DNA from: a virus
DNA: 32,537 bases
UHGV virus genome: UHGV-0139594
Direction: 5' to 3' (one strand)
Positions within the stretch are counted from its first letter, which is position 1, and every line of letters begins with the position of its first letter. Positions 79 to 30,685 of the stretch are shown piece after piece. The translations under genes and the position numbers were made by a program. A model generated the notes under the pieces. The model did no database searches. It was not told the origin of the DNA and worked only from the letters and a program-made list of their open reading frames with translations.

Positions 79-154
79 GCCGATATAGCTCAGTTGGTAG
101 AGCAGCGCATTCGTAATGCGAAGGTCGTAGGTTCGACTCCTATTATCGGCACCA
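79..154 (+). tRNA. thrW: tRNA-Thr (anticodon CGT), thrW-type; 76 nt with encoded CCA
   Basis: Sequence GCCGATATAGCTCAGTTGGTAGAGCAGCGCATTCGTAATGCGAAGGTCGTAGGTTCGACTCCTATTATCGGCACCA folds as a canonical cloverleaf (acceptor stem GCCGATA/TATCGGC, anticodon CGT at 112..114). Matches my recollection of enterobacterial thrW. Confidence 0.93.
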
Positions 155-168: not shown

Positions 169-1332
169 TTACACATCATTAGTACCTTCCTTATTTTTTG
201 ACTGGGACAAATTTGGGACCGATGGGTTCAGGATCGAGTCTATTTGCCGTGCGTGTTCGGTAAGGTGATTAGGTGCAAGGTGAGCATATCGACGAACCAT
301 TTCGATAGACTCCCAGCCTCCCATTTCCTGTAACACTGACAACGGGACTCCGGCTTGAACCAGCCAACTTGCCCAGGTGTGTCTCAAGTCGTGAAATCTG
401 AAATCATCAATACCAGCCCGTCTCAGCGCCGCTTTCCAGGCTGTGTTTGCGTCATACCGCATCTTCCTTACTGTTGGCGCTTTCGTTCCGTCTGGTTTGG
501 TACAGCTTTCCTTGTACACAAATACCCAACGGTGATGATTCCCGATTTGTTTTTTCAATACGCGACATGCAGTATCATTCAGCGCAACGCCAATTGCGCG
601 GTTTGATTTACTCTCTTCCGGGTTTATCCATGCCACCCGGCGCTGCATATCTATTTGTTGCCATTCAAGGTTGATGATGTTCGAGCGTCTTAAGCCTGTT
701 GCCAGTGCAAATTCAACAACAGACTTTAATGGCTCCGGACATTCATCAATCAGCCTTTGTGCTTCATGGGGCTCCAGCCAGCGGATCCGTTTATTCTTTG
801 GTTGAGGCACTTTAATAATTGGTGCCTTATCCAGCATTTTCCATTCACGCTCTGCGGCTCTTAGTAGGGCCTTTATAAATGAAAGATGCGTAGCCTTCGT
901 TGCAACTGACGCTGGTTTTGGCGTGTATTCTGGAACAGGTTTCCCTTTTTTTCTGCATGCTTCTGCCCTGAGTTTCCAGTTTTCCTCATGACGCCGGTTC
1001 GTCATTTTCTGCATTGCTGAATAAATTTTTGATTCAGTAATGTCTCTTAGTTGCATTCCTGCGAAATGTTGAAGCCAGAATCCGATCCGGCTTTTGTCAT
1101 CGTCCAGCGATTTTTTATGTGCTTTCTCTTCAAGCCACCTGACACACGCTTCCTCGAACGTTATATCAGGTATTTCACCAAGTTTGCTGACCCGCCATGC
1201 TTCAGCCTTTAGCTTGTCATGGAGTTCTGTCGCCTGCCTTTTGTCCTTTGTTCCAAGAGACTGTTTAAATCTTTTACCGTTCGGCAATGTGAAACTGGCG
1301 TACCATATTTCACCTCTGCGGAAGAGTGACAT
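169..1332 (-). CDS. int: Tyrosine recombinase / phage integrase, P22 Int-like
   Basis: 387-aa ORF starting [14 protein letters not shown], with C-terminal catalytic region [15 protein letters not shown]...VRRYAHL (R-H-R-Y signature). Lies 15 bp from the tRNA 3' end and is transcribed toward it. Confidence 0.95.
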
Positions 1333-4080: not shown

Positions 4081-4119
4081 AGCCAAGGAGTGCAAGGATT
4101 ATCAAAAAAAGGAGGTTGT

Positions 4120-5679: not shown

Positions 5680-5689
5680 AACATATCCC

Positions 5690-5805: not shown

Positions 5806-5814
5806 GAGAAAGCT

Positions 5815-6063: not shown

Positions 6064-6085
6064 CCACAGTTTTAAGGAGATAGCC

Positions 6086-13350: not shown

Positions 13351-13353
13351 TTT

Positions 13354-13830
13354 ATGCAGGTACTAAATTCCCAGCGTAAAGCTTTCCTTGATATGGTGGC
13401 TTGGTCAGAAGGAACGGATAACGGGCGACAACCGACACGTAATCACGGTTATGATGTTATTGTTGGCGGCGAACTGTTTACTGATTACTCTGATCACCCT
13501 CGCAAACTTGTCACGTTAAACCCCAAACTCAAATCAACAGCCGCCGGACGTTATCAGCTTCTTTCACGCTGGTGGGATGCTTACCGTAAACAGCTTGGTT
13601 TGAAAGACTTCTCCCCCAAAAGCCAGGACGCAGTGGCATTGCAGCAGATTAAAGAGCGTGGCGCTTTACCGATGATTGATCGCGGTGATATCCGTCAGGC
13701 TATCGATCGTTGCAGCAATATCTGGGCGTCGTTACCTGGTGCAGGTTACGGTCAGTATGAACATAAAATCGGTGACCTGATTTCCCGGTTTAAAGAGGCT
13801 GGTGGGGGGGTAAATGAAGTTGAGCTATAA
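13354..13830 (+). CDS. R: Endolysin, lambda R-like lytic transglycosylase
   Basis: 158 aa, near-identical over long stretches to my recollection of lambda R (QRKAFLDM.AWSEGTDNGRQ.TRNHGYDVIVGGELFTDYSDHPRKLVTLNPKLKST.AGRYQLLSRWWDAYRKQLGLKDFSPKSQDAVALQQIKERGALPMIDRGDIRQAIDRCSNIWASLPGAGYGQ). Confidence 0.92.
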   Translation: MQVLNSQRKAFLDMVAWSEGTDNGRQPTRNHGYDVIVGGELFTDYSDHPRKLVTLNPKLKSTAAGRYQLLSRWWDAYRKQLGLKDFSPKSQDAVALQQIKERGALPMIDRGDIRQAIDRCSNIWASLPGAGYGQYEHKIGDLISRFKEAGGGVNEVEL

Positions 13831-14206
13831 GCTGGTTATCGCTGCATTCTTCTTTACTGTCATCGGTTCTTTCATCTGGTCTGCCAACCACTACTACAGC
13901 AAATATCAGCACGAAAAGAAACGTGCTGATGAGGCTGTACAAAATGTTGAATCTGCAACAGCCATTACCCGTAACGTCCTGCAATCACTGCAAATCGTCA
14001 ATACAGTTATAGAGGTTAACCAGCATGCAAAACAGCAGATCGCACTGGAGTCACAGAGAACCCAGGAAGATATCAAAGTGGCTGTTGCGGATGATGATTG
14101 TGCTTCACGTCCTGTGCCTGCTGCCGCTGCTGACCGGTTGCGGAAATTCGCGAACGGTTTACGTGAGCGCTCCGGTGGCACCACTGCCAGCCAGCCTGAC
14201 TTCTGA
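13814..14206 (+). CDS. Rz: Rz-like i-spanin
   Basis: N-terminal transmembrane helix (LVIAAFFFTVIGSFIW), coiled-coil body, position after endolysin. Confidence 0.7.
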   Translation: MKLSYKLVIAAFFFTVIGSFIWSANHYYSKYQHEKKRADEAVQNVESATAITRNVLQSLQIVNTVIEVNQHAKQQIALESQRTQEDIKVAVADDDCASRPVPAAAADRLRKFANGLRERSGGTTASQPDF

Positions 14207-14369: not shown

Positions 14370-14996
14370 TCAGTTGTCAAATGAATATACGTTAAAGGTA
14401 TATGTCGACATAATTTCACCAAGTACCTCAATACATATACTTTTTTTATGAAAATTACTGGGAAATGAACTTAGCTCTTCAAGGTATTGCACATAAGTGC
14501 TGATATCACTTGCATCACGTTCAAGGAATTTCACTTGGCCAAAAGAAGGAGTATTAATCCTGGTTCTTTGCTGGATTATATGGATAAAATGTGTAGTTGG
14601 TGAAACTATTACTCTTGAAATATCGGAAATGATGTCTTCTTGAACTTGCCGATAAAGTAAATCCTTTGGGTAATGGTGTTTTATCTCGATGGTTGCAACA
14701 TTGCCATTATGTTCAGACGTTAATATCGACTGGTTATAAAGTGATATGTCAACAGCGCCGATACCGAGTTTTGGATGCTCACTTAAAGCAGTTAGTGTGC
14801 TGATTTGATTGAGTATAACAACTAACTCATCACGTATTTGTGTTTCATGTTTGCGATTGTAGAAGTAGCCATTCAGTTCATTTAACTTTTTATGCATCCT
14901 ATCGTGACTAATTGCTTCGATCAGTAAATCCTGAATCATACTTTTCTCTAGGTAATCCGAACGGTTGTAAGTGACAGTATTGTGCTGGCATGTCAT
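14370..14996 (-). CDS. Moron cassette gene B: hypothetical 208-aa protein with a possible PD-(D/E)xK-like motif
   Basis: AT-rich ORF on the opposite strand in the bor position. Segment GIGAVDISLY ... VATIEIKHH loosely fits D...(D/E)xK spacing; speculative. Confidence 0.55.
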   Translation of the reverse strand: MTCQHNTVTYNRSDYLEKSMIQDLLIEAISHDRMHKKLNELNGYFYNRKHETQIRDELVVILNQISTLTALSEHPKLGIGAVDISLYNQSILTSEHNGNVATIEIKHHYPKDLLYRQVQEDIISDISRVIVSPTTHFIHIIQQRTRINTPSFGQVKFLERDASDISTYVQYLEELSSFPSNFHKKSICIEVLGEIMSTYTFNVYSFDN

Positions 14997-15039: not shown

Positions 15040-15375
15040 TCATCGATAGAAAAACTTTACAGCCCACTCGTAAACAGCTTTGTAAATCGGTTCATGGTAA
15101 ATACTATCGATACTATTCAGATGTGCGATCATCGCCTCCACAGTTGTAGTGGTTGTTTCTAATATTTCGATTATTGCAGGGCGGTCATCATCTTCATCGA
15201 AGTATTCGAACAGCAGTACAGGTTTACCATGCCATTCAGCATCAGAGACTCTAAGGTTACAACTACCGCTCAACTCAAAGTGAATTTTGTAATTACCTTC
15301 TACAGAATGGCCTACGGGGAAAAAGTATAGGGTGTCATCTTTGTTCAAAAGCCATTCCCATTCATAACTATTCAT
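15040..15375 (-). CDS. Moron cassette gene A: hypothetical acidic 111-aa protein
   Basis: AT-rich ORF upstream of gene B on the same strand, 43-bp gap. AGGAG RBS before the second ATG (MNSYEWEWLL). Confidence 0.55.
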   Translation of the reverse strand: MNSYEWEWLLNKDDTLYFFPVGHSVEGNYKIHFELSGSCNLRVSDAEWHGKPVLLFEYFDEDDDRPAIIEILETTTTTVEAMIAHLNSIDSIYHEPIYKAVYEWAVKFFYR

Positions 15376-15525
15376 TTGTGAACTCCTGTTCATTGAGTTT
15401 CAACAACTATCAACTACATCCAGCGAAGCATAAAAGATCGTTTATGGCAAAACCGGAATGGAGTGCGATTCGATTCTGAGAAGGATGCCACGTATCGTAC
15501 GCGAACCATCCAAGAGGATTATGCA

Positions 15526-15876
15526 ATGCCCCTACGAACCCCAAAAGCCTGCCGTGTTCGCGGCTGCCGCCATACCACTACTGACCCGTCAGGCTACTGC
15601 GAAAGCCACAAAAGCGAAGGCTGGAAGCAATACAAACCTGGACAATCCCGTCATCAGCGCGGCTACGGTTCGAAGTGGGACAGTATCCGCGCGCGTGTTC
15701 TGAAGCGTGACAAAGGTCTGTGTCAGTTATGTCTGCGTGCTGGTGTGGTGCGTGAGGCGAAAACTGTTGACCACATCATCCCTAAAGCGCATGGCGGCAC
15801 TGATGCTGACAGTAATCTGCAGAGTCTGTGCTGGCCGTGTCATAAGGCGAAGACGGCCCGTGAACGGTTAAAGTGA
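15526..15876 (+). CDS. HNH endonuclease (terminase-associated)
   Basis: CxxC ... DHIIPKAHGGTDADSNLQSLCWPCH HNH motif; directly upstream of the small terminase as in HK97-like cos phages. Confidence 0.8.
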   Translation: MPLRTPKACRVRGCRHTTTDPSGYCESHKSEGWKQYKPGQSRHQRGYGSKWDSIRARVLKRDKGLCQLCLRAGVVREAKTVDHIIPKAHGGTDADSNLQSLCWPCHKAKTARERLK

Positions 15877-15885: not shown

Positions 15886-15962
15886 TCAACTGTCTGAGGG
15901 GAGGGGCGGGTCAAATCCCTGCAGCCTGACGTCTTCCGGACTGCCCGCCCCATCGTTTTTTT
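15886..15962. other. GC-rich inverted repeat plus T-tract between HNH and terS; terminator and/or cos-region candidate
   Basis: GGGGCGGG (about 15903..15910) pairs with CCCGCCCC (about 15944..15951), followed by TTTTTTT. Confidence 0.3.
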
Positions 15963-16001
15963 ATACCCGCGAAAAATGAAATTTAACCAGGAGTGCCGCA
16001 T

Positions 16002-16496
16002 ATGGCTGGAACGGCGGGGCGTTCCGGGCGTCGCCCCAAGCCAACGGCGCGCAAGGCGCTGGCCGGAAACCCCGGCAAGCGAGCCCTGAACAAAGATGAA
16101 CCTGTTTTTACGCCCATCAAAGGTGTTGAGCCACCGGAGTGGTTCGCAGAAGAAAATCTCCCTCTCGCCACGATCATGTGGCAACTGACAACCAAAGAAC
16201 TCTGCGGTCAGGGCCTGCTGTGCGTGACTGACCTCGCGGTGCTTGAGCGGTGGTGCGTAGCCTATGAGTTCTGGCGACGTGCCGTGAAAAATATTGCCAG
16301 CCAGGGCAACACCATCACCGGTGCAATGGGCGGTATGGTCAAAAATCCGGAGCTGACCGCCAAGAAAGAACAGGAGTCCGAGATGAGCAGCACGGGGGCA
16401 ATGCTCGGACTCGACCCCAGCAGCCGCCAGCGTCTGATTGGCCTGGCGGGGCAGAAGAAAGCCACTAACCCGTTTCTGAAAATTATCGAATCATGA
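16002..16496 (+). CDS. Terminase small subunit (P27-family-like)
   Basis: AGGAG RBS before ATG 16002; basic N-terminus [14 protein letters not shown] typical of P27-type TerS; precedes the large terminase. Confidence 0.75.
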
Positions 16497-17344
16497 GCCG
16501 GAAATCTTACCCCAACGTAAATGCAGCCAATCAGTATGCCCGTCATGTCGTGCGCGGAAAGATTGTGGCCTGCCAGTTTGTGATTCAGGCCTGCCAGCGC
16601 CATCTTGATGACCTGATGGCGGAAAAAAGTAAGTCGTTTCGTTACCGCTTCGACAAGGACCTGGCTGAACGGGCCGCGAAATTTATTCAGCTGTTGCCGC
16701 ACACCAAGGGTGAGTGGGCATTCAAACGGATGCCCATCACGCTGGAGCCGTGGCAGCTATTTGTGATCTGCTGTGCGTTTGGCTGGGTCAATAAAGGCAC
16801 CCGGTTGCGCCGCTTCCGGGAGGTGTATACCGAAATCCCCCGTAAGAACGGCAAATCAGCAATCTCTGCCGGTGTTGCCCTGTATTGTTTTGCCTGTGAT
16901 AACGAGTTTGGCGCGGAAGTGTATTCCGGTGCCACGACAGAGAAACAGGCGTGGGAAGTCTTTCGCCCGGCGCGACTGATGTGTAAACGCACACCCATGC
17001 TGACGGAAGCGTTCGGGATTGAGGTTAACGCCTCAAACATGAACCGTCCGGAGGATGGCGCGCGGTTTGAACCGCTGATCGGTAACCCCGGTGATGGTTC
17101 ATCACCCCACTGTGCGGTGGTGGATGAATATCACGAGCACGCCACCGATGCGCTTTATACCACGATGCTTACCGGGATGGGGGCGCGACGTCAGCCACTG
17201 ATGTGGGCCATCACCACCGCCGGGTACAACATTGAGGGGCCGTGCTACGACAAGCGGCGGGAAGTTATCGAGATGCTCAACGGTTCGGTAACCCTGCGCA
17301 CATTATCGGTTATGGATCGGTGTTTGACTGTCGTTCTGAGCTGA
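16493..17344 (+). pseudogene. Terminase large subunit, truncated after the ATPase domain
   Basis: Walker B-like AVVDEYHEH and ITTAG motif present, but ORF is only 283 aa. Its last ~36 codons are an out-of-frame read of the prohead protease gene. No nuclease domain and no portal gene follow. Confidence 0.65.
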
Positions 17345-17832
17345 TATTTGGTTCATTCCGCGAAATCATCCGGCCCGGCGCTTTTGACGATGTGCTTGGT
17401 GATGATGTACGCGCACTGTTTAACCACGATCCTAATTTTATTCTTGGGCGTAGTGCAGCAGGCACGCTGAATCTTTCAGTTGATGAGCGCGGATTGCGCT
17501 ATGACATCCAGGCTCCGGAGACACAGACCATTCGTGATCTGGTGCTGGCCCCGATGCAACGTGGAGATATTAACCAGTCATCTTTTGCTTTCCGTGTCGC
17601 CCGTGACGGCGAGGAGTGGTATCAGGATGAGGACGGGGTTGTTATTCGCGAGATAACCCGCTTTTCCCGTCTGCTGGATGTCAGTCCTGTGACATATCCT
17701 GCCTATCAGGAGGCTGACTCGGCTGTTCGCTCCATGAAAGCATGGCAGGAGGCGCGCAACAGCGGCGCGCTACAGAAAGCCATTAATCAACGTATGGCGC
17801 GTGAGCGCGTCCTGACCCTTCTTAACGCGTAA
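17242..17832 (+). CDS. Prohead protease, HK97 family
   Basis: [10 protein letters not shown]...[12 protein letters not shown]...ALFNHD...[21 protein letters not shown] matches HK97 gp4-type protease motifs. Frame opens only at 17236, so start (GTG 17242) is uncertain. Confidence 0.75.
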
Positions 17833-17842
17833 AGGAAACATC

Positions 17843-19072
17843 ATGAAACTGCATGAACTGAAACAGAAACGTAATACTATCGCAACTGACATGCGTGCCC
17901 TGAATGAAAAAATTGGTGATAACGCATGGACGGAAGAGCAGCGCACTGAGTGGAACAAAGCAAAATCCGAACTGGAAGCGCTTGATGAACGAATTGCACG
18001 CGAAGAAGAACTGCGTCGTCAGGATCAGGCGTACATTGAAAGCAATGAGGAAGAGCAGCGTCAGAATCTTGATCCGGAAAACAATCCGCAACAGGATGAG
18101 AAACGAGCTCAGGTTTTTGATAAGTGGATGCGTCACGGTGCCAGTGAGCTGACATCAGAAGAACGAAAGGCGTTGCGTGAACTTCGTGCCCAGGGCGTAG
18201 CTCAGGATGAAAAGGGCGGATATACCGTACCAGAAACATTCCTGGCGAAAGTTGTTGAGAAGATGAAATCCTACGGTGGCATCGCCAGTGTGGCGCAGAT
18301 TCTTACCACTTCAGACGGTCGCACTATGGAGTGGGCAACAGCTGATGGTACTTCCGAAGTTGGTGTTCTGCTGGGCGAAAATGAAGAAGCCGGTGAAGAA
18401 GACACCGATTTCGGTATGGGAAGCCTTGGGGCGCTCAAAATGACATCGAAAATAATTCGTGTGTCTAATGAGTTGCTGCAGGACAGTGCGATCGATATGG
18501 AAGCTTATCTTGCCCGTCGCATTGCTGAACGTATTGGTCGTGGTGAAGCCCGTTATCTGATTCAGGGGACGGGGGCTGGTACGCCTAAACAACCCAAAGG
18601 GCTGGCAGCATCAGTGACCGGCACAACACAGACTGCCGCGGCAAATGCGGTGAAGTGGCAGGAAATTCTGGCTCTGAAACACAGCATTGATCCTGCATAT
18701 CGTCGCGGACCGAAATTCCGCCTGGCGTTTAACGATAATACGCTGAAACTGATCAGTGAGATGGAAGACGGTCAGGGACGCCCTTTATGGTTGCCGGATA
18801 TTGTTGGTGTGGCACCTGCTTCAGTGTTGAATGTACCGTATGTCATTGATCAGGAAATTGATGATATCGGGGCGGGTAAAAAATTCATGTTCTGTGGTGA
18901 CTTTGATCGCTTCATTATCCGTCGTGTGCGATACATGATTCTTAAACGTCTGGTTGAGCGTTACGCGGAATATGATCAGACCGGTTTTCTGGCCTTCCAT
19001 CGTTTTGACTGTATCCTGGAAGACACCTCTGCCATTAAAGCGCTGGTGGGGAAAGGTAGCGTTGGTGGTTGA
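17843..19072 (+). CDS. Major capsid protein, HK97 fold, with N-terminal coiled-coil delta (scaffold) domain
   Basis: 409 aa; N-terminal ~120 aa charged coiled coil; follows protease. Confidence 0.85.
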   Translation: MKLHELKQKRNTIATDMRALNEKIGDNAWTEEQRTEWNKAKSELEALDERIAREEELRRQDQAYIESNEEEQRQNLDPENNPQQDEKRAQVFDKWMRHGASELTSEERKALRELRAQGVAQDEKGGYTVPETFLAKVVEKMKSYGGIASVAQILTTSDGRTMEWATADGTSEVGVLLGENEEAGEEDTDFGMGSLGALKMTSKIIRVSNELLQDSAIDMEAYLARRIAERIGRGEARYLIQGTGAGTPKQPKGLAASVTGTTQTAAANAVKWQEILALKHSIDPAYRRGPKFRLAFNDNTLKLISEMEDGQGRPLWLPDIVGVAPASVLNVPYVIDQEIDDIGAGKKFMFCGDFDRFIIRRVRYMILKRLVERYAEYDQTGFLAFHRFDCILEDTSAIKALVGKGSVGG

Positions 19073-19150
19073 TTAGTCTTTTTACGTAATACAGCACGCC
19101 GCGTAATGCGGTTTTTTTGTGCCCGCGTTCTGGCGGGCACAGGAGGTTTT

Positions 19151-19474
19151 ATGCTGTTAAAAATGGAAGAGATTAAGCTTCAGCTTCGTCTGGATGATGA
19201 TTTCTCTGATGAAGATGAGTTGCTTGAACTACTTGGGAAGGCCGCTCAGAGTCGGACGGAAAACTTCCTTAACCGTACGTTGTATGCAACCGCAGATGAC
19301 AGGCCTGCGGATGATCCTGATGGGCTTGTGATATCTGATGATGTGAAGCTGGCGCTCCTGCTACTTGTCAGCCATTTCTACGAAAACCGCTCAACGGTTA
19401 CAGACGTTGAGAAAATGGAGTTGCCAATGAGCTTTAACTGGTTGGTTGCTCCTTATCGCCTTATACCACTATGA
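19151..19474 (+). CDS. Head-tail connector protein (gp6-like)
   Basis: AGGAGG RBS; MLLKMEEIKLQLRLDDDFSDEDELLELLGKAAQ matches the gp6-like head-tail connector signature. Confidence 0.75.
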   Translation: MLLKMEEIKLQLRLDDDFSDEDELLELLGKAAQSRTENFLNRTLYATADDRPADDPDGLVISDDVKLALLLLVSHFYENRSTVTDVEKMELPMSFNWLVAPYRLIPL

Positions 19475-19881
19475 AAATTCGTCAGGCGCAGACCAGCGCA
19501 ACCTACATTCTGCCTGACCCAGGCGAGCTGAATAAACGCGTCCTGATCCGCCAGCGGGTGGATATGCCCGTGGATAACTTTGGCGTGGAGCCTCAATACC
19601 CGGTTGCGTTCCGGGCATGGGCGAAGGTTATCCAGACCAGTGCCACCACCTGGCAGGAAACCGCGCAGATCGGAGATGCCATCACCCATTACATCACCAT
19701 TCGCTACCGCCGGGGGATCACTGCTGATTATGAGGTGGTCTGTGATGACAGTGTGTACCGGGTGAAACGTCAGCGTGATCTGAACGGGGCGCGGCGCTTT
19801 CTGCTGCTGGAGTGTACGGAACTGGGTGCCGAAGAACAAATGGGAGGACGCAGTGGAGCAGACAGCATTTTTACACGTTGA
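19471..19881 (+). CDS. Head-tail adaptor / head closure protein
   Basis: Size and position in the HK97-like head completion module; ATGA overlap with upstream gene. Confidence 0.65.
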   Translation: MKIRQAQTSATYILPDPGELNKRVLIRQRVDMPVDNFGVEPQYPVAFRAWAKVIQTSATTWQETAQIGDAITHYITIRYRRGITADYEVVCDDSVYRVKRQRDLNGARRFLLLECTELGAEEQMGGRSGADSIFTR

Positions 19882-20377
19882 TTTCAAACAACCGGAGGAG
19901 ATGGAGTTTAATCGTGCCAGGCTCCGAAGGGCATTTGTTCAAATCGGGCGTGTCTATATGCGTGATGCCCGGCGGCTGGTGATGCGACGTGGTCGGTCTG
20001 CTCCAGGTGAAAACCCCGGCTATCAGACCGGACGACTTGCGCGTTCTATAGGTTATTACGTCCCCCGTAAAAGCTCCCGTCGTTCTGGCCTGATGGTCAG
20101 AATTTCCCCTAACCAGAAAAACGGGCAGGGTAACCGGCGTTTTCCTGAAGGTTCTGCGTATTATCCGGCGTTTCTGTATTACGGTGTGCGTCATGCCGCA
20201 TACGGGATGAGCAAAAAGGATAAGCGCCAGAAAAAGCAGCATTCATCCCGCTGGCGGCTGGCACCACGTAATAACTTTATGGCTGATGTCATCGACCAGC
20301 GTCGTTACTGGACACAAAAGTTACTGTCCCGTGAGTTACAGCGGTCATTACGTCCTGTAAGAAGGAAAAAAACATGA
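19853..20377 (+). CDS. HK97 gp10-family tail component
   Basis: Position and basic composition. GTG 19853 preceded by GGGAGG; other starts at 19826 or 19901 are possible. Confidence 0.55.
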   Translation: MEQTAFLHVDFKQPEEMEFNRARLRRAFVQIGRVYMRDARRLVMRRGRSAPGENPGYQTGRLARSIGYYVPRKSSRRSGLMVRISPNQKNGQGNRRFPEGSAYYPAFLYYGVRHAAYGMSKKDKRQKKQHSSRWRLAPRNNFMADVIDQRRYWTQKLLSRELQRSLRPVRRKKT

Positions 20378-20934
20378 AACTGACGCCTGTTATTGCTGCG
20401 CTGCGTGCCCGCTGCCCGTATTTTGAAAACCGGGTGGCAGGTGCGGCCCAGTTCAAAAATCTGCCGGAGGTCGGAAAGCTGAAACTCCCGGCGGCATATG
20501 TGGTACCGGGGGATGATTCTCCGGGAGAAAACAAAAGCCAGACCGACTACTGGCAGGAACTGAAAGAGGGCTTCTCCGTGATTGTCATACTGAGTAACGG
20601 GCGTGATGAGCGCGGTCAGTTTGCCTCGTATGATGTGGTGGACGATGTCCGGCAGATGCTCTTTAAGGCCCTGCTGGGCTGGAACCCGGAAGCGTGCGGT
20701 AACCCGATTACCTATGACGGCGGCACGCTGCTGGATCTGAATCGTCATGAGCTGATTTATCAGTTCGATTTTTCGGTCATCAGCGAGCTGACCGAAGACG
20801 ATACCCGCCAGCAGGATGAGCTGAACAGTCTGGATGAACTGCGAACGCTGGCGATTGATGTTGATTATCTCGATCCCGGTAACGGGCCTGACGGCGATAT
20901 CGAACATCACACCGAAATACCCCTTCCTTCCTGA
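20374..20934 (+). CDS. Putative tail completion/terminator protein (found upstream of Mu-like sheath genes)
   Basis: ATGA overlap with upstream gene; position upstream of the sheath. Confidence 0.55.
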   Translation: MKLTPVIAALRARCPYFENRVAGAAQFKNLPEVGKLKLPAAYVVPGDDSPGENKSQTDYWQELKEGFSVIVILSNGRDERGQFASYDVVDDVRQMLFKALLGWNPEACGNPITYDGGTLLDLNRHELIYQFDFSVISELTEDDTRQQDELNSLDELRTLAIDVDYLDPGNGPDGDIEHHTEIPLPS

Positions 20935-20942
20935 GAATCTTC

Positions 20943-21113
20943 ATGTTTGTGAAACCTGTTAAAGGGCGGTCAGTGCCTGACCCTGCCCGCGGTGACCTTT
21001 TGCCCACCGAAGGGCGAAATGTTGATGAGAACAACTACTGGCTGCGCCGTGAAGCAGCGGGTGATATCCGGCGCGTGAATAAAAAGGTGAACACCGATGA
21101 CGATAAGCTTTAA
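20943..21113 (+). CDS. Small conserved protein preceding the tail sheath (DUF2635-like, 56 aa)
   Basis: MFVKPVKGRSVPDPARGDLLPTEGRNVDENNYWLRREAAGDIRRV; below the 60-aa track cutoff; overlaps the sheath start. Confidence 0.6.
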   Translation: MFVKPVKGRSVPDPARGDLLPTEGRNVDENNYWLRREAAGDIRRVNKKVNTDDDKL

Positions 21114-22344
21114 CACCATTCCGTCGAATACGCTGGTTCCGCTGTTTTATGCGGAAATGGATAACTCGGCGGCGAATACTGCACAGGACAGCGGGGCATC
21201 GTTGCTGATTGGTCACGCCAATAACGGTGCAGAGATTGTTGCCAACAGTCTGGTGCTGATGCCGTCGGCAGACTATGCACGCCAGATTTGTGGTGCGGGA
21301 AGTCAGCTGGCGCGTATGGTCGAGGCTTATCGCCAGACCGATCCGTTTGGCGAGCTGTATGTGATTGCCGTTCCGGAAGCCACAGGCGCGGCGGCAACGG
21401 TTACGCTGACGGTGACCGGAGCAGCAACCGAAACCGGCACGGTGAATGTTTATGTGGGACGTACCCGCGTGCAGGCACCGGTGACCAACGGCGATAACGT
21501 CACGACGATTGCCAGCAGTATCCAGGATGCCATCAATGCCGTTCCGGCCCTGCCGTTTACGGCCTCATCTTCGGCAGGCGTGGTCACGCTGACCGCGCGT
21601 CATAAGGGGCTTTGCGGGAATGAAATTCCTGTCAGCCTCAATTACTACGGCTTTGGTGGGGGCGAAGTGCTGCCAGCGGGCGTACAGATTGCCGTGGCGA
21701 CGGGGAGCGCCGGAACGGGCGCTCCGGTTCTCACCGGTGCGGTGGCTGCAATGGCGGATGAGCCGTTTGATTATATTGGCTTGCCGTTCAACGACACGGC
21801 CTCCGTTAACACGCTGGTGACCGAGATGAACGATACCAGCGGTCGCTGGAGCTATGCGCGTCAGCTGTATGGTCATGTGTATACGGCAAAGATCGGCACG
21901 CTGTCAGAACTGGTGACCGCAGGTGACCAGTTTAACCAGCAGCACATTACCCTGGCGGGATACGAAAAAGACACTCAGACGCCAGCCGACGAGCTGGCGG
22001 CAAGCCGTACCGCCCGCGCAGCGGTGTTTATTCGCAACGATCCGGCACGTCCCACGCAGACCGGTGAGCTGGTGGGTATGCTGCCTGCACCGAAGGGGAA
22101 ACGGTTCACGATGACCGAGCAACAGACCCTGCTGTCTCATGGCGTGGCAACGGCGTATGTCGAAAGTGGGGTAAACGCTCTACGTGGCATACACAACGAT
22201 TTACAAGAGCTAAACGAAAGGCTTTACCGTGGTTTTAGCCTGACCGTCGAGGAAGTCGAGATCACCTTGTCCGGCATATTCAGATTCAACTTTCAGGCCC
22301 AGCAGCGCGGTAATCAGATCCACTTCAACACGGTTTGCGTGTGA
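21097..22344 (+). CDS. Contractile tail sheath protein (Mu gpL-like), probably 3'-truncated
   Basis: MTISFNTIPSNTLVPLFYAEMDNS ... GSQLARM ... VTLTARHKGLCGNEIPVSLNYYG match Mu-like sheath signatures. Protein is 415 aa against an expected ~490, and the sheath-like sequence seems to stop near 22150. Confidence 0.7.
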   Translation: MTISFNTIPSNTLVPLFYAEMDNSAANTAQDSGASLLIGHANNGAEIVANSLVLMPSADYARQICGAGSQLARMVEAYRQTDPFGELYVIAVPEATGAAATVTLTVTGAATETGTVNVYVGRTRVQAPVTNGDNVTTIASSIQDAINAVPALPFTASSSAGVVTLTARHKGLCGNEIPVSLNYYGFGGGEVLPAGVQIAVATGSAGTGAPVLTGAVAAMADEPFDYIGLPFNDTASVNTLVTEMNDTSGRWSYARQLYGHVYTAKIGTLSELVTAGDQFNQQHITLAGYEKDTQTPADELAASRTARAAVFIRNDPARPTQTGELVGMLPAPKGKRFTMTEQQTLLSHGVATAYVESGVNALRGIHNDLQELNERLYRGFSLTVEEVEITLSGIFRFNFQAQQRGNQIHFNTVCV

Positions 22345-22716
22345 ACGGTAATGAGCCTCAGAGAAATCATTAACCGCTACCAGCATAGCATCAGAACGGT
22401 TTGGATATTGGCGGCTGTATTGTTCCAGGTCACGAGAAGTAACAGCGTTAATACTGCCGACGTGTTTCATCTGGAAAAGTTTGTTTGACCATTCCTGACG
22501 TTTAGAGGCGTTCCAGTCGCTTTGAGCGTAAGGCGAGGTTTCCCCAGCTACCTGCACAAACTGATCAATCAGGTCGGTAAGAAGAATGCTGTTTTCTGTA
22601 TGATATTGCACATCGAACAGATCGAGATTAGTAATCAGGGTATTAAGTGCATTCTCATAAGCAAAAGGAGTTACTACCGCAGTATTAACGCCAAAATATG
22701 TTGATAAATCATTCAT
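22210..22716 (-). CDS. Hypothetical protein (168 aa), last gene of a minus-strand operon
   Basis: ORF in a 3-gene minus-strand cluster; its 3' end overlaps the sheath ORF tail. No confident homology. Confidence 0.45.
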   Translation of the reverse strand: MNDLSTYFGVNTAVVTPFAYENALNTLITNLDLFDVQYHTENSILLTDLIDQFVQVAGETSPYAQSDWNASKRQEWSNKLFQMKHVGSINAVTSRDLEQYSRQYPNRSDAMLVAVNDFSEAHYRSHANRVEVDLITALLGLKVESEYAGQGDLDFLDGQAKTTVKPFV

Positions 22717-22730
22717 TATTATTTTCCTTG

Positions 22731-23114
22731 TTAAGTCGTAGGGATCGCAAGTTCTTCATAACTAGCAATTACAAAGCCGAGAGATTGCAGTTTTGCAATA
22801 ACACTTGCCTTTTCCATGCTGTTAAATTCAATCCCATCTTCAGCCAGAATAACGAAAGTAGGATGTGCAACCACTACGCTTTCCTGTCCTTCATAAGCCG
22901 GTTCAACTACTACGTGAGCAATATCAGATGCGGTTGTTGCTTTGGTGCCATCGGCTTTCAGCAAAGCCCCGACAATAAGATCGTCAGTGAGAGGTGAAGC
23001 CAGTTTGACGAGGCGATCTTGCAGCACCGGATCAGCAGCGTAAGCTACTACCTTACAGCGTGAACGGGAGTTATCCGCATTCACTACTTTTAATTTTCCA
23101 TATGGGTTAGCCAT
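22731..23114 (-). CDS. Hypothetical protein (127 aa)
   Basis: ORF in the same operon. Weak resemblance to head-decoration-type proteins (ADGTKATTASDIAHVVVE), not reliable. Confidence 0.45.
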   Translation of the reverse strand: MANPYGKLKVVNADNSRSRCKVVAYAADPVLQDRLVKLASPLTDDLIVGALLKADGTKATTASDIAHVVVEPAYEGQESVVVAHPTFVILAEDGIEFNSMEKASVIAKLQSLGFVIASYEELAIPTT

Positions 23115-23118
23115 AAGA

Positions 23119-23316
23119 TTATTTTCCTTTCAGTTGTTTAATTTTAGATTTAAGGGCATCAGCAAGACTAACCGCATCAGCCGATTTAAATAATTGAGCA
23201 GTGGTAGAACGAAGACTTTCGGGAGTAACTCCCAACAGTGCGGCAACCTTAATGAGGTTTTCATCACTAACAATCATCGTTTCCCCGTCTTTGCTGATAA
23301 TCATTTCTTGTTTCAT
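23119..23316 (-). CDS. Hypothetical small protein (65 aa)
   Basis: Start taken at the internal ATG (MKQEMIISKDG) with an AGGAA-type RBS; first gene of the cluster. Confidence 0.4.
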   Translation of the reverse strand: MKQEMIISKDGETMIVSDENLIKVAALLGVTPESLRSTTAQLFKSADAVSLADALKSKIKQLKGK

Positions 23317-24300
23317 AAATAACGTTCCTGTTAGTGCCAGACAAATAAAAAGCCCCAATGCCGTAAGAGGTTAATTCTGACCAGCAAAGGGGCTTTAACG
23401 TGCGGGCAATTACATAATTGATAAGTTAAACTATAAGAGGATTAAACATATCAGCAAATACACTTTTTAAATATACTTGATGATATGCTTAAAGGGTGAA
23501 TAGATACTCCTGAAAACATGCTCTTAGGAAAACATGCGGAATCAATCAGGAATATCTATTCGGGGCGCGGTGGCCAACCGCTATCTTTCATGGTGTGGAT
23601 GCACCAGTCAGATTTTAAGGAATCACTATTCCAATCTACTCACAGATTAAATTTTTAATAATGATTAACTACACCAACAGTAATCTACCGTTTCAGAAAA
23701 TCGTTTTTACAACCAAAGCTTATAGATCCGCATTCTATAAAACCCGTTTTGCTATCAATATTTCCAAAGTTTATTGCACCATTCTTAGCTAAACTCTCTC
23801 TGCTTGCGGCTAACGCTATGCAGATGATTGTTTTTGACAACAACTTAATAGATTGTTCTGTTACTAACTTCTGTCATTAAATAATAGTTTAATGATGTTA
23901 GTAAATAGTTATAAAATATAACTATCAGTGTAAGGCTCTTTAATATTTTCTGACAAAATAAGGAGCTTTAGGATAAGCATAGATGAAAAATAAGAGCGGG
24001 AAGGGCAAGGAGATAACACCTACCCGCTTTTATCAAAATTAAGCACAATGCCTAACAACATTCATCAACACAACGTAGAAACAATCAACAATCAAAGAGG
24101 GAGTTATGATTATTCTAAAACTTCTTGAGAGATGGAAGGTAATATTTGTTAGAGGTTAATGCCACTCAACCTTTGAGGCTATCACCTTCCATATGCAGGG
24201 ATTTATGACAGTAGAAGGATTAACACCAGTCAAAACCTTTTTATCTACCCCTAATATCATTATATAATGAAATCGTTATAAATGCAAATGATTTTCATTA

Positions 24301-24609
24301 TCATTTAGAGAAAATAGCACTTTTTGCTAAATCGTCTACTAATTGCTGAATCTCTTCACTTGCAGCCTTTAACGTGCTGGCGGTGTCTGTGATGGTTTGA
24401 GTGCACATCTTGGCATCGTCCTCAATTAGCTCTAAATCGCTCACCAGAGAGATAAAATCGTCAAGGCTTACATTCACCTTCATTAAGCTAATAACGCATT
24501 GAGAGAGCGTGTAATCGCATAAATCTGAATAGGCTTGATTTATTCTTGTTTGTAGTGAGATAGTCAGATCTAAAAGTTGTTCCATTGCATTGCTAATATC
24601 TTCTTCCAT
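24301..24609 (-). CDS. Hypothetical acidic protein (102 aa)
   Basis: AAGGAG RBS; start overlaps upstream stop (TAATG); AT-rich. Confidence 0.5.
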   Translation of the reverse strand: MEEDISNAMEQLLDLTISLQTRINQAYSDLCDYTLSQCVISLMKVNVSLDDFISLVSDLELIEDDAKMCTQTITDTASTLKAASEEIQQLVDDLAKSAIFSK

Positions 24610-24854
24610 TATGCGGCTTCTCCTTGTAATGCATCATTAATCATATTCAATACGATGTTAAAAGGTGTCTTGAGCGTCAGCACTTCATCACGATAACGCT
24701 CTAATGCTTCGTAGTCTTCTGTTTCTTTTGCCAGTCGGATTAACTCAGCATAGTTTTTTGCATCAGACAGGATCATCTGAAATAATTGTGTTTCTTGAAT
24801 ATAGCCAATCATTATTTTTCCTTTTTCGAATATTTTCATTGGGCGCTTATACAT
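24609..24854 (-). CDS. Hypothetical protein (81 aa or shorter)
   Basis: Coupled to downstream gene; alternative start at internal Met with AAAGGA RBS. Confidence 0.45.
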   Translation of the reverse strand: MYKRPMKIFEKGKIMIGYIQETQLFQMILSDAKNYAELIRLAKETEDYEALERYRDEVLTLKTPFNIVLNMINDALQGEAA

Positions 24855-24869
24855 ACACCCATCATTTTA

Positions 24870-25253
24870 TTAGTTAGAACGTTTGTTAGAAGCTAATGTA
24901 TCTTCTAAATGAGCCATCAGATCGACTTCCGATGCACCACCTACACAATTATTGAAAGCGTTAAATCCCAAAAAATGATGATAGGAGCTAAACCCTAAAA
25001 GTTGCCAACGCTTCAGAGTGCCATCAGAAATTATTGTTTGTTTTCTTGTTCTTGGGCGAAAGTAAACGCCTGGCATTGACTGGATTATTTCTAATTCTTT
25101 ATTACTTAATTCAGGGGATTCTATTTCAAGAATAAATATTATCTCTTCCCCTGGAATTTCATTATTGGTATGTGTCGGTGGACGTTGTCTTTTTGAATTG
25201 AAATTACTGTTTTTTTCAATACGTTTTAAGTTATTCTTTTTCTTTCTTCCCAT
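24870..25253 (-). CDS. Hypothetical protein with basic N-terminus (127 aa)
   Basis: AAGAGGG RBS; N-terminal Lys/Arg-rich segment MGRKKKNNLKRIEKN. Confidence 0.5.
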   Translation of the reverse strand: MGRKKKNNLKRIEKNSNFNSKRQRPPTHTNNEIPGEEIIFILEIESPELSNKELEIIQSMPGVYFRPRTRKQTIISDGTLKRWQLLGFSSYHHFLGFNAFNNCVGGASEVDLMAHLEDTLASNKRSN

Positions 25254-25627
25254 TTTCCCTCTTTTTATGTGGATTATAAAAACTTAATGCCATTGTTACG
25301 ATGAATATCGCCATAAATGCATTTGCCATATGTATTGCCCGATCTGTTGTTATTGATTGTTTGTGAGAAACAATTCAAAATCTTTGTTTAATTTCAAAAG
25401 ACGAAATGTAGTGCTGTTAATCCCTTCATAATCCAGCACACCGAACGATGTAAAATGATTTAACCAACAATTTCTGATAGTGCGCTGTAGCCGCCTAAAC
25501 TACAAAAGCTAACCACTGTCGGTGGTGAAAACTCTATTTCCAAAATAGCTTTTAAAATGTTGTATCCGCTTTCAGTTATTTCAATAGTTTTGTTTCCTAT
25601 AGTGATGTTATAAGTCATTTATTCTCC

Positions 25628-26221
25628 TTAGAAGGGTAGTGAATCATATATTGTGCTCTCACTTTTGAGATCAATTATCAAAGAGTCAAAATCATTTTCA
25701 CAAAGATAGATATTCTTTGAATCTAATGCTCGTTTTACAAAATCTTCTGTTTCTTCGTGCGGTGGTTTCTTCTTATCAAGGGAAAGAAGCCAAGTAAAAA
25801 TTTCGGGCCGCTCAGGGAACTCTGGCTCTTGTGTTTCTTCTTCAACGATGATTTCGGAAACATTCAATATTTCATTAGATTCGTCTTCTTTCTCAGAAGG
25901 ATCAGGTAGTGATGATTCTCCTTTTGGAATATCAAGCACTCGATAAAGGTTAGAGCTTCCTGGTCGTGCATCTTTTATAATTAATCCCATTTCGAGCAAT
26001 TTCTTAACCCTTTCTTCTGCTGCTCTTGGTGTTATGCCAAAAACATCGCCTATCTTAGCGTAAGAGGGAAATGCACGATCAAACCCTCTCAGATAGCAGT
26101 AAAGGTTTTTAGCACTATCTGTAAATTTATGCCCGTTTACTTGGCTTATTTTTAGAATCCACATAGGAACTTTTACAAATTGTTCTTCATTAATCATTAA
26201 AAATCTCCTTGATGTAATCAC
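25628..26221 (-). CDS. Rep-like winged-helix protein (putative replication initiator of an iteron replicon)
   Basis: N-terminal wHTH (NLYCYLRGF...SYAKIGDVFGITPRAAEERVKKLLEMGLI) resembling replication-initiator DNA-binding domains; acidic C-terminal half; iteron array about 1.2 kb upstream. Confidence 0.55.
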   Translation of the reverse strand: MITSRRFLMINEEQFVKVPMWILKISQVNGHKFTDSAKNLYCYLRGFDRAFPSYAKIGDVFGITPRAAEERVKKLLEMGLIIKDARPGSSNLYRVLDIPKGESSLPDPSEKEDESNEILNVSEIIVEEETQEPEFPERPEIFTWLLSLDKKKPPHEETEDFVKRALDSKNIYLCENDFDSLIIDLKSESTIYDSLPF

Positions 26222-26250
26222 GCTCTACGGCGCTACTATGGTGATAAAAA

Positions 26251-26421
26251 TCACTTGCTTTTGTTTGAGAGTGTTTCAGCCTCTCTTTTCAACATATCAA
26301 GAATGTAATCTGTAACAGTGATACGTTTACTTCTGGCTTCTTTAAACAACACCTGAAATACTTCATCAGGAATATGAAAGCAAGTGCGTGGTTGTCTTTT
26401 CTTTTCTGTAGTTTCGCTCAT
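26251..26421 (-). CDS. Small ribbon-helix-helix-like protein (56 aa)
   Basis: MSETTEKKRQPRTCFHIPDEVFQVLFKEARSKRITVTDYILDMLKREAETLSNKSK; GGAGAAGGAGAA RBS; below track cutoff. Confidence 0.5.
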   Translation of the reverse strand: MSETTEKKRQPRTCFHIPDEVFQVLFKEARSKRITVTDYILDMLKREAETLSNKSK

Positions 26422-26442
26422 AGTTTTCTCCTTCTCCTGTTA

Positions 26443-26625
26443 TTATTCTTTCTCTGCTTCTGCCTTACGCAGTTCATCAATAATTTTTAGTGCATCGTCA
26501 AAGCATTTTTCACGCTCTGGATAACCTCTACTCCTTGCCATATTACGATTCATTACTATTTGATGTCGTGTTAGCTCACCTTTTTTAAATGCCTCTGCGA
26601 CGTGTTTCGGTGTAAACCATTTCAT
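26443..26625 (-). CDS. Hypothetical small basic protein (60 aa)
   Basis: ORF immediately upstream of the RHH gene on the same strand. Confidence 0.45.
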   Translation of the reverse strand: MKWFTPKHVAEAFKKGELTRHQIVMNRNMARSRGYPEREKCFDDALKIIDELRKAEAEKE

Positions 26626-27454
26626 AAAAACTCCTTATTCAGTTAAAAGAAAAAAAACACCTTGCAAGCCTGACGGCTTCAAAGTGCATTGATTTTGATT
26701 ATTTAGAGAAGAATGTTTTTCTGTCCCTCTAATACCTATTATTACATATAAAGAAACATTTGTCAATACCCTTTTCGCAAAAATACGATCTTTTTCAGCA
26801 GCTTAAAATTTTTCTTAGCAATTCGTGCTCTTATGAGTACTCCTATTCTTCCTTATTCTCTAAAACGCTCTCTGACGAGGTTTTGATAAATACAATACAT
26901 TCCCTTATGTAGAGGCTGTTTAGCTCGCCAGAGGCTTATTTAAGCGGTAGAAACTTATTTAACCTTCAACTACTAAAACCATTCTTTCTTTTTTGTTTGT
27001 TGTTGGTTGTTGTCTGTGTCTATGTGCTAACATCGCTAATGCGTAGCACACAAGGTTATTGCACTCGTCAGAGTATTGCACAATAGATTTTCTCTTAAAT
27101 AGATTGATGATCGTTAGATTGGCGTAAGCCTCATCAATGGAACTATTGAAGCGCACAGCGCATAGACACTAACAACCATTCGCTTACGCTCAGGTTATTG
27201 CACATAGTAGATTACATATTCGTTGTGAGCGGCATTAGCGAACATAGATCTACTAACTAACATCAACAAACAAAAACTATGTGTTATGACAAGCAGTCTA
27301 ACGACTAACACTCTAACTTGTGCAAGGTTCTGGCGAATGCCAATAGATTAAGGGATAGTCGTTAGACTCCCCTAACGGGTATCCCTATAATTATTCTTTA
27401 AAGATAAAGGAATTTATAAAAGATAATTTAATTGTAGTTTGATAGTTGATCTAA

Positions 27455-27600
27455 TAGGTAACAAAATTCTGTAGGGGTGGCTAACAGTTTTCTGTGGGGG
27501 TGTCTAACATAATTCTGTTAGGGTTGGGGTAACAGTTTTCTGTTAGGGTGCATATTTCTTTAAAAGTTAAGGATAACAGAATTCTGTGGGGGTAGCTCAC
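27455..27600. repeat. Iteron array: five copies of a ~23-bp unit (AACAnnnTTCTGTnGGGGTnG)
   Basis: AACAAAATTCTGTAGGGGTGG, AACAGTTTTCTGTGGGGGTG, AACATAATTCTGTTAGGGTTGG, AACAGTTTTCTGTTAGGGTG, AACAGAATTCTGTGGGGGTAG at roughly 23-bp phasing. Confidence 0.7.
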
Positions 27601-28709
27601 AGTGACCTACCGTTACATCCATTTATCACATAACATCTGTGCAATGATCTTCTAAAAGTGTTTCTTGCTACCAAAATTAAACATCTAAAACAGGCTTAAA
27701 TTCAATGTAATTGATGATTAATCCCTGTGTAATTCCTACGTAAAAATTCAATGAAAAGTAGCTTAAAAGTGCAATTCTTACTTTCTTCACTTTTACATCA
27801 CTTTCGCAAAGCCTTGTGTAATGCGGCTACAGCGCACTATCAGAAATTGTTGATTAAAAATCAATCTATTATTTGTCGAACAAGTTTCTTTCACGTGTTG
27901 AAAATTTATGTTTAAATTTGCTTTCAATCTTTAATGTGCAATCACTATCAACATAAAAATAAAAAACCTTCTATTATATTTCATAGCATACAAAAGTCAA
28001 TAGAAGCCCTCTCGTGCTCCTACGTAAAAAATCCACCACTTTTCCCCTGATACATCAACTCAAGGCGTTCCATGTGTTCCTTAGTGCATATTACGATTAT
28101 TATGTTAAATGGATTTTGGCCCATATTTTGACCTGCACCCGCATAAACACTGGTTTCATCGCTTACAGCCCTTGTGAGACGTGGTGCTGTTTCTAGCATC
28201 TGATCCGACATAAAACCGATCATTCTCGTGTTTAGTGAAAGTTTAGTGAGAGACATTACAGAAAGGCTTTCTGTGTAATGATTTAATAGGTAAAAACGAT
28301 GTTGATTACGCAAGAAAATTCCTTGCTGATATTTGGGGATTCTGGATTTTCCAGATCGGGGGGCGGTGAAAATCGCGTTAAGCACTTCTCGCAATCTAGC
28401 CATAAGGGAAGGGATAAAGGTATTTAGATGTATTTATAGCTATTTATGGCTATTTATTTTTTATTTACCTTAATTTAAAAATAGCCTTATAAATCAATAA
28501 GATACAGGACTATCTGTTTATATTTTAATCAATTAAATCAAGTTTAATACCCTTAAACCACCTGAAAATAACCTTAAATACCCCAATAATTAATTTTAAC
28601 GATTCCTGTGCTCTCTCCTACTTTGCAAAAAGGCAAAAAAAGCCCATAGAGGCACAAAAATATTAAAACCAATAACTCAATAATGCCTCTACAAGAGCTT
28701 CTCTAACTG

Positions 28710-29261
28710 TTATTTTTGATTGAGCTTACATCGATCCCATTGTTCTGTCGTTCTTGTGATACGATCGCTTATTGCAAAATTTAATAGCCAAGAATCATAA
28801 GCATAAACCTTGCTTTTATCATCTGCCATCATAAACTTGCCGTTAGCATTCAGTTTTGGCGATATCAAATATGTTCCATTTAATCTGTTAGCCTTGAAGC
28901 TATCTGCATATAAAGTTACTTGTGCGTATCCCTGAACACGTAATGCCCCTAAACGTCCGTTTTCGATTGATGCAATAGAGTATTGGCAAAGATAATTTTT
29001 GGCAGCAGGAGTCGTTTTCACTCCTTCAGTTTTTCGTGAATTATTTGATTGCGAGCTTCGAATAGAGGATGAAGGATAAGAGTATGAATGATTTTTATAA
29101 GATGAAGGGGCATAAGAGCCAATCCGGCACGTCTTACCAACAGCTATACACGAGTTACCACAAGGTATTCCTTTTTTGCAGTTTTTAGCAACTGCGGTAG
29201 AAGTTCCCCCTACAAACAACGTTGTAAAAATCATCATCCTCACAAATGCAGACCTGCGCAT
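28710..29261 (-). CDS. Secreted Cys-rich protein of unknown function (183 aa)
   Basis: N-terminal signal peptide (MMIFTTLFVGGTSTAVA), Cys cluster CKKGIPCGNSCIAVGKTC, Ser-rich linker, ~100-aa C-terminal domain; AT-rich. Confidence 0.55.
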   Translation of the reverse strand: MRRSAFVRMMIFTTLFVGGTSTAVAKNCKKGIPCGNSCIAVGKTCRIGSYAPSSYKNHSYSYPSSSIRSSQSNNSRKTEGVKTTPAAKNYLCQYSIASIENGRLGALRVQGYAQVTLYADSFKANRLNGTYLISPKLNANGKFMMADDKSKVYAYDSWLLNFAISDRITRTTEQWDRCKLNQK

Positions 29262-29655
29262 ATAACCTCCCTTTTTAGATTATTCTTATGCTATACACTT
29301 GCTTAAAAAAATAAAAGTGCCCTCTAACCTTTATCGTTCTCCATCACAATTTGAGAAGTAAGAGCAGCAACCTCAAGCGATGATCACGTTTGCGCCGATT
29401 TCAGAGAAAAAGACAGTAACTGAACTCACTATGAAGGCTAAACGTATCTTTACACTTGATGAAAACGTTCAAAAAACAACCTAACCCCAAAATTCAACAA
29501 ATAACAACATATTGTTTTTAAAAGAAAATTAAATCTACATCAAATATTGGTTGACGTAGATTGAGGTGAATAGTAGACTATTAGGGTAAATTGCCATTCT
29601 TGCAACATCATTTAATGCATGTTCTAATCCTCCTATCCCAAAACCGGAGGAAGTT

Positions 29656-29814
29656 ATGCATTTACTTTCAAAACATCTTCACACTATTCACTTTCTCGTT
29701 ATTGATGTATTCATTGTGGCTATTAGTTACCGCATTTGCATCGCTTCCAGTGAAGAGATGGACGCTGTTGCAATTATTGCTCAAGCAATGGCGATGTTAA
29801 CTAAACGACTTTAA
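29656..29814 (+). CDS. Hypothetical small hydrophobic protein (52 aa)
   Basis: GGAGG RBS 5 nt before ATG; converges on a hairpin shared with the next small gene. Confidence 0.35.
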   Translation: MHLLSKHLHTIHFLVIDVFIVAISYRICIASSEEMDAVAIIAQAMAMLTKRL

Positions 29815-29880
29815 TAATTTCACTATCAGGCGCATAAACACATCTTTGATCGCTGGATGTGTTATGCGCCTACTGGTGAT

Positions 29881-30033
29881 TCAATCCTTAAGCCATTTCA
29901 ACTCACTAAGGAGTTTTCTTTCTTCGTTCTCTCTCTGTTTACGCTCTAGCCAGGCTTTTCCTTCTGGCGTAGGCAGGAACTTACGAGCGTGAATCTTGCG
30001 GTTATTACGTTTGATAGCTGCAATGTTTTTCAT
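29881..30033 (-). CDS. Hypothetical small basic protein (50 aa)
   Basis: AGAGG RBS; MKNIAAIKRNNRKIHARKFLPTPEGKAWLERKQRENEERKLLSELKWLKD. Confidence 0.35.
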   Translation of the reverse strand: MKNIAAIKRNNRKIHARKFLPTPEGKAWLERKQRENEERKLLSELKWLKD

Positions 30034-30639
30034 CGTGTGCCTCTGTATTCATATGAAAATTAACAAGTTACATACTACACAGGGAGACTACGCATAAAAC
30101 ACAATACAAGTAAAGATACATTTTCAAGACAATAGGAGCCATAAAGCGCCTTTGATGGTTATACCAAAAAATAAGCGCCGTAGGCGTATCCACTAAAAAG
30201 GGCTTTTTCACAAAAGCTATGAAGTCTTAGCAGTTCTTCTCTTATCAGGCACCCGTTGTACTCCGGTGGACGAAACCGTGCTAGAGCTTGATTCTTTCCC
30301 GATCAAGTTAGGTTTTGAAGAGGTGGGCTTTAATCCACTATTGCACTTAAAACTCTTCCCATCATTTAGCCTGTTTATCCTCTGCAACGTCTCACGACGT
30401 GTAGCATCATTGGACACCGCGCCAGGTGTGGAACATCTTGCTAAGAGTTTTGGTAGAAGGTTTAGAGACGGTGGCACGTCTTCCAGCTTCAAAGGAACTT
30501 GTTACGAGGTTGAGCCTGGGAACTACTCGCCCATACGTGTTAAACTACCAAAAGCCCATAACAACGTATAGGCGTTTGTAAGTGATAACAGAAGATACAA
30601 TTTCTTAGAGAAGTTAAGCTAAGTTATTGATTTTCTTGA

Positions 30640-30685
30640 TGGTGCCGATAATAGGAGTCGAACCTACGACCTTCGCATTACGAAT
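30640..30685 (-). repeat. Inverted 46-bp copy of the thrW 3' end (anticodon loop to CCA): att core remnant
   Basis: TGGTGCCGATAATAGGAGTCGAACCTACGACCTTCGCATTACGAAT is the exact reverse complement of tRNA positions 31..76 (window 109..154). Confidence 0.85.

Follow-up and report, generated by a model that had tools for sequence, protein, structure and literature searches.

A stretch of DNA of 32,537 bp, one whole assembled contig that we refer to as the window, carries, to judge from its sequence, an SfV-like E. coli prophage integrated at thrW, whose head is of the HK97 type and whose contractile tail is of the Mu type. By its gene content the element derives from the SfV family but is defective, and it is no functional phage. 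Comparison with intact relatives very probably identifies the lesion as a recent deletion of 2,363 bp, private to this lineage, that arose by illegitimate recombination in the late operon and left a locked-in cryptic prophage, unable to package DNA unaided.

The element shares 96-99% DNA identity with phage SfV and with intact E. coli prophages, and it is co-linear with SfV (NC_003444.1) at 96-99% nucleotide identity over window positions 15935-17289, 17286-20055 and 20374-22172 (blastn). The terS gene, the 5' half of terL, the protease, capsid, connector and sheath genes are 96-99% identical to those of SfV and its relatives SfI, SfII and SfIV. Gene order, integration in thrW, an att core of the 46-47-bp type and a cos-type terS/terL pair are likewise common to these phages and the window. 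ARAGORN placed a tRNA-Thr (CGT) gene, thrW, at 79..154 on the plus strand as the site of prophage integration, and a repeat match within the window marked the 3' 47 nt of thrW as the att core (109-155). The tyrosine integrase gene of the prophage lies next to it on the minus strand (169..1332; Pfam Phage_integrase, E=3.2e-48). This arrangement is that of SfV-type phages, for which integration in thrW and a 46-bp attP have been described (PMC3851460).

Downstream of the integrase gene is a lambdoid early region encoding a repressor, a replication protein, Dam, RusA, KilA-N and antiterminator Q (Pfam, on an identical ENA contig), followed by a lysis cassette at 13009-14206. All ORFs of at least 300 aa in the window could be assigned, namely to the integrase, a BRCT protein, the replication protein, a DUF968 protein, the capsid and the sheath. 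The complete packaging and head module that characterizes SfV-type phages (terS, full terL, portal, protease and capsid) was not present. The window thus contains prophage genes at an att site without genes that are essential in intact close relatives, which is what defines a defective (cryptic) prophage.

Relative to SfV the window lacks 2,363 bp, corresponding to NC_003444.1 1356-3718, and the same 2,363 bp are absent relative to an intact prophage of E. coli 21EVA (NZ_CP138427.1). By blastn, window positions 15935-17289 match SfV 1-1355 (97.5% identity) and positions 17286-20055 match SfV 3715-6484 (96.1%), and blastn end points together with base-by-base junction alignments placed the deletion junction at 17289..17290. 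In the 21EVA prophage, the flanks of the deletion are 98.0% (left, HNH-terS-terL 5' part) and 99.0% (right, protease-capsid) identical to the window. A megablast search against phage records likewise returned a split match that broke at one and the same query position in every record, with the HNH-terS-terL 5' part as its left half and protease-capsid as its right half. Because the relatives are 97-99% identical and were compared directly with the window, chance is not an issue for this finding. Two further references were discarded: the copy in E. coli Combat11I9 is full of frameshifts, and the linear record of phage SKA5 begins inside the module and was unusable for the left flank.

A preliminary description of the window, made from its sequence before these comparisons, had proposed a deletion of roughly 2 kb with a junction between 17230 and 17245, and had set alignment to intact relatives as the check. 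The alignments show a single co-linear deletion against both SfV and 21EVA; the proposed size was close to the 2,363 bp found, and the proposed interval sits about 50 bp upstream of the junction. At the junction the two sides share a microhomology of T (SfV) or TA (21EVA), that is 1-2 nt, which is set in an imperfect CGGTA-CCC / CGATAACCC similarity. In the SfV annotation terL occupies 559-2292, the portal gene 2392-3666 and the protease gene 3659-4261. The deletion has therefore removed TerL residues 267-577, the small spacer between terL and the portal gene, the entire portal gene and protease codons 1-20. The interval that SfV retains at 1356-3718 accordingly holds the TerL nuclease, the portal and the protease N-terminus, all missing from the window. 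The 21EVA prophage has a full terL (1,734 nt), a 162-nt ORF, a portal gene (1,227 nt) and a full protease gene (603 nt) in the place where the window misses 2,363 bp, and it shares with the window the lysis genes and two minus-strand morons upstream of the HNH gene.

The gene order given in the preliminary description, terS followed by a 283-aa terL fragment, prohead protease and capsid, was borne out with correct coordinates. The 283-aa terL ORF (16493-17344, plus strand), assigned by gene order and Pfam, has TerL_ATPase as its sole Pfam match (residues 86-256, E=1.8e-26). It gave no Pfam match to TerL_nuclease (PF20441), and its tblastn match to SfV TerL stops at residue 266. Intact SfV TerL has 577 aa, with the ATPase domain at residues 86-256 and the nuclease domain at 268-560 (Pfam). 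The break thus falls in the linker after the ATPase domain, at codon 265/266, and the entire nuclease domain is gone, as had been proposed. The genuine TerL part comprises codons 1-265 plus 2 nt (16493..17289, plus strand) and is 98.9% identical to SfV TerL residues 1-266. Its ATPase motifs are complete, with a Walker A motif PRKNGKS at 16838-16858, a Walker B motif AVVDE at 17114-17128 and TTAG at 17213-17224. As a large terminase the product therefore has the ATPase domain and lacks the C-terminal RNase H-like nuclease.

The length of 2,363 bp is not divisible by 3, so the terL frame enters the protease DNA out of frame and stops at 17344. The translation past ...EMLNGSV is read from protease DNA and forms an out-of-frame tail of about 17-18 codons and a TGA stop (17291..17344, plus strand); the junction alignment agrees with the earlier reading that the terL frame runs out of frame into the protease gene.

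The prohead protease remnant (Peptidase_S78; 17290..17832, plus strand) corresponds to SfV protease residues 21-200 and matches its Pfam model from model position 13 (E=2.2e-40). At the DNA level the match begins at SfV 3715, and the SfV protease CDS begins at 3659. The protease frame does open at 17236, immediately after an in-frame TGA at 17233-17235, as described before; homology had been said to start at the same point, and it starts at 17290, with codon 21. The native start codon and the overlap with the portal stop codon are lost. The only in-frame starts left are fortuitous GTG codons at 17242 and 17320, and a GAGG-like sequence (17234-17237) lies beside a candidate GTG start. The remnant retains the conserved FNHD (from 17419) and QSSFAF (from 17575) motifs. 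The truncated protease may thus not be null, given the motifs kept and a possible GTG start with a GAGG-like sequence; from what is established for HK97-type cos phages, the remnant would probably be poorly expressed.

Neither the portal nor the C-terminal part of TerL was found elsewhere in the window. A tblastn search of SfV portal and the SfV TerL C-terminus against all six frames of the 32.5 kb returned no match (best E=1.2), and no portal Pfam domain was detected among the called genes, including those of the matching ENA contig. Neither Pfam nor PHROG gave a portal or terminase match for any of the low-GC ORFs or for the other large ORFs. The absence of a portal gene was thus confirmed, and a portal or TerL C-terminus located elsewhere in the element, which the preliminary description had named as evidence against its reading, did not turn up within the window. 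A tblastn search of the six frames with the SfV tube and tape measure proteins yielded only noise.

The genes that flank the deletion are retained. An HNH endonuclease, the usual partner of HK97-type cos terminases, is encoded upstream of terS (15463..15876, plus strand; Pfam HNH, E=3.3e-16), in the same position as in the intact 21EVA prophage. The small terminase subunit, of the P27/Terminase_4 family, is intact (15993..16496, plus strand; Pfam Terminase_4, E=4.4e-21) and 98.2% identical to SfV TerS over 164 aa. The end of the SfV genome (cos, SfV coordinate 1) aligns at about position 15935, and the cos site is still intact. To the right of the protease remnant are the intact gene for an HK97-fold major capsid protein (17843..19072, plus strand), whose product is 99.8% identical to the SfV capsid over 409 aa (Pfam Phage_capsid, E=7e-65), and the head-tail connector genes (adaptor, head closure, Neck1 and tail terminator; 19106..20934, plus strand), all intact, identified by Pfam and PHROG and co-linear with SfV. 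None of the remaining late genes differs in length from its counterpart in intact relatives, at 97-99% identity, and this equality of gene lengths argues for a recent event.

HK97-type cos phages need both a portal and the TerL nuclease. The earlier conclusion that the prophage cannot package DNA would follow from this need. SfI, SfII, SfIV and SfV were all assigned cos packaging in a comparative study of SfIV (PMC3851460). We propose that illegitimate recombination joined the terL linker (codon 265/266) to protease codon 20/21 at 1-2 nt. With the portal lost, prohead nucleation and terminase docking would have no vertex to take place at, and with the TerL nuclease lost the cos site would not be cut; the protease would in addition lose its translational coupling to the portal gene. 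From gene content and the biology of HK97-type cos phages, no DNA packaging and no infectious virions would be expected without help. A co-resident SfV-like helper prophage, or a translocated copy elsewhere in the genome, might possibly supply portal and TerL in trans.

The junction is rare. It was present in none of 5,426 complete E. coli genomes searched with a 3.7-kb probe and a 301-bp probe; the 301-bp junction probe matched 1,395 genomes and was split at the junction in all 1,395. SfV-like prophage matches were found in about 2,000 of the 5,426 genomes, in as many as 6 places in one genome. In GTDB representatives, IMG/VR and JGI metagenomes, a 36-nt degenerate junction pattern had zero matches. 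ENA and Logan contigs encode the identical 283-aa chimera, and only 3-5 such contigs contain the junction. Over 20,852 bp one ENA scaffold agrees with the window at 99.986% identity, with a few base differences, and one Logan contig is identical to it over 7,811 bp. These ENA and Logan contigs may come from one biological sample, which would make them weak as independent support for the junction. On this distribution the deletion is a strain-private lesion and probably a recent one.

Such a distribution could also arise if an assembler had skipped 2.36 kb of a prophage that is in truth intact. The window is itself an assembled contig of metagenome or short reads that ends in IS1, and the few contigs with the junction, perhaps from one sample, have no counterpart in a finished genome. 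However, the joined points share only 1-2 nt, whereas graph assemblers misjoin at repeats of k-mer length, of which there is none here. The ENA scaffold and the Logan contigs, which come from two pipelines, moreover agree on both the junction and the 283-aa product. We therefore consider an assembly artefact very unlikely, and favor a deletion in the prophage itself.

The break in the packaging module proposed in the preliminary description stands, but the picture was incomplete: besides the N-terminal truncation of the protease, there is a break in the tail sheath gene, and the att cores stand in opposite orientations. The broken sheath gene (21097..22344, plus strand) was identified by blastn and tblastn against SfV and by Pfam sheath domains. 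Its similarity to SfV covers about 374 of 498 residues and ends at about position 22172-22227, beyond which the ORF continues into unrelated low-GC DNA; the sheath gene of SfV is unsplit. The DNA at 22225..30638 is part of a separate phage-like thrW island with 35% GC, lies on the minus strand, inverted relative to the sheath gene, and is 99.7% identical to the thrW islands of E. coli STECUZB006 and BA92. The first island gene (22210-22716), on the strand opposite to the sheath gene, encodes the N-terminal 168 aa of a 343-aa gene product, so that the join splits this island gene mid-way. The junction between sheath and island was absent from the 5,426 complete E. coli genomes.

A second 47-bp thrW att core lies at 30639..30685 on the minus strand, as an exact 47-nt reverse complement of 109-155. 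No direct copy of the att core was found in the window, and this inverted one is the sole other copy. The segment beyond it (30686-32537) contains a gene for an AraC-family regulator (31175-31927, minus strand) and then an IS1 end, at which the contig stops (32410..32537; matching the IS1 of E. coli BA92 at 100%). About 545 complete E. coli genomes contain this AraC-IS1 segment. In E. coli MLI104K1 it is followed by genes for the tail fibre, baseplate and tape measure of an SfV-like prophage, and it occupies the place where SfV carries its gtr genes. In the window, too, the AraC-family regulator and IS1 stand beside the att core instead of gtr genes: up to the contig end, the DNA beside the second att core contains neither gtrABC nor oac for serotype conversion, and no glucosyltransferase gene.

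An inversion that broke the sheath gene at one end and the neighboring island gene at the other would give this layout, and in that case the tail genes may still exist beyond the end of the contig. The broken sheath and the inverted att cores would mean that normal excision by Int/Xis is lost. A second rearrangement that split the sheath gene and inverted one att core would have removed this route out of the chromosome; the element would be a locked-in prophage at an early stage of decay.

The low-GC island deserves brief mention in its own right. It is about 12 kb long, phage-like, has 35% GC and occurs at thrW in several E. coli genomes (intact copy: L004, 5047-18371). The intact island encodes an integrase, a Dit-like tail protein, a 633-aa tape-measure-like protein and a replication-initiator-like protein, together with many ORFs without a family match, and its 343-aa protein shows a weak match to a major head protein family (PHROG, E=1e-4). 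No recognisable portal or terminase was found in the intact island of other strains. The island may be a satellite or an old remnant.

If the missing genes had been translocated, or if the element were routinely mobilised by a co-resident SfV-like helper in the manner of a satellite, the loss of portal and nuclease would not be disabling. The intact terS, cos region, HNH, capsid and connectors are compatible with this, as are the abundance of SfV-like prophages in E. coli, with matches in up to 6 places in one genome, and the presence of another large rearrangement at the same locus. The deletion, however, has a simple co-linear signature that is unique to one lineage, with no conserved reduced architecture; the inverted att cores and split sheath speak against a mobilisable unit; and nothing portal-like is present in the 32.5 kb. 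On this evidence we give the idea very little probability, and a true deletion in a stranded prophage accounts better for the data. A satellite of the PICI type (PICI or capsid-forming PICI) was rejected, because the reduced architecture is conserved nowhere and the flanks are of the full-phage type.

It is extremely improbable that the element is a domesticated remnant kept for a function, such as poisoning the packaging of SfV-like phages by TerS and ATPase-only TerL, or, in a variant of this reading, that its lysis and moron genes are retained under selection. The TerL fragment does end exactly at a domain boundary, with Walker A, Walker B and TTAG intact, and the other genes are free of disabling mutations, but a very recent deletion equally predicts intact genes, and the allele occurs in no other genome and hence gives no sign of selective maintenance. 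For the specific proposal that TerS and the nuclease-less, ATPase-only TerL act as a dominant-negative packaging inhibitor, shielding the host from superinfecting SfV-like phages, the likelihood is similarly slight. If it were true, the lesion would represent exaptation and not simple decay.

The favored reading, a recent private deletion in a cryptic prophage, is ordinary prophage decay, of a kind already known. Prophages are generally held to be quickly inactivated by deletion and rearrangement, and the present case is consistent with this view. CP4-6, at thrW in K-12, is a cryptic (defective) E. coli prophage. Like cryptic prophages of this kind, the element is a remnant at the thrW hotspot with deletions and rearrangements, lies near island DNA and IS elements and appears locked in; unlike them it is far less decayed, with two lesions visible and the remaining genes nearly identical to those of functional phages. 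It thus provides a clean example of early decay, in which two large lesions stand among genes that are about 97-99% identical to their functional counterparts. Annotations should mark this prophage as defective, give terL and the protease gene as pseudogenes and the portal gene as absent, and leave the prophage out of counts of inducible phages.

Several further ORFs were also noted. A 306-aa ORF with a C-terminal BRCT domain (4090-5010) lies within a patch of 37% GC and is convergent with a cI-like repressor gene (4993-5679, minus strand). Its match is PHROG 3989, a family of unknown function; the ORF resembles a moron, with a possible role in defence or exclusion. Three low-GC ORFs on the minus strand (12277-12756, 14370-14996 and 15040-15393), to which no function was assigned, are inserted in the late region, between Q and the holin gene and between the lysis genes and the HNH gene. 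Two of them, 14370-14996 and 15040-15393, are shared with the intact prophage of E. coli 21EVA.
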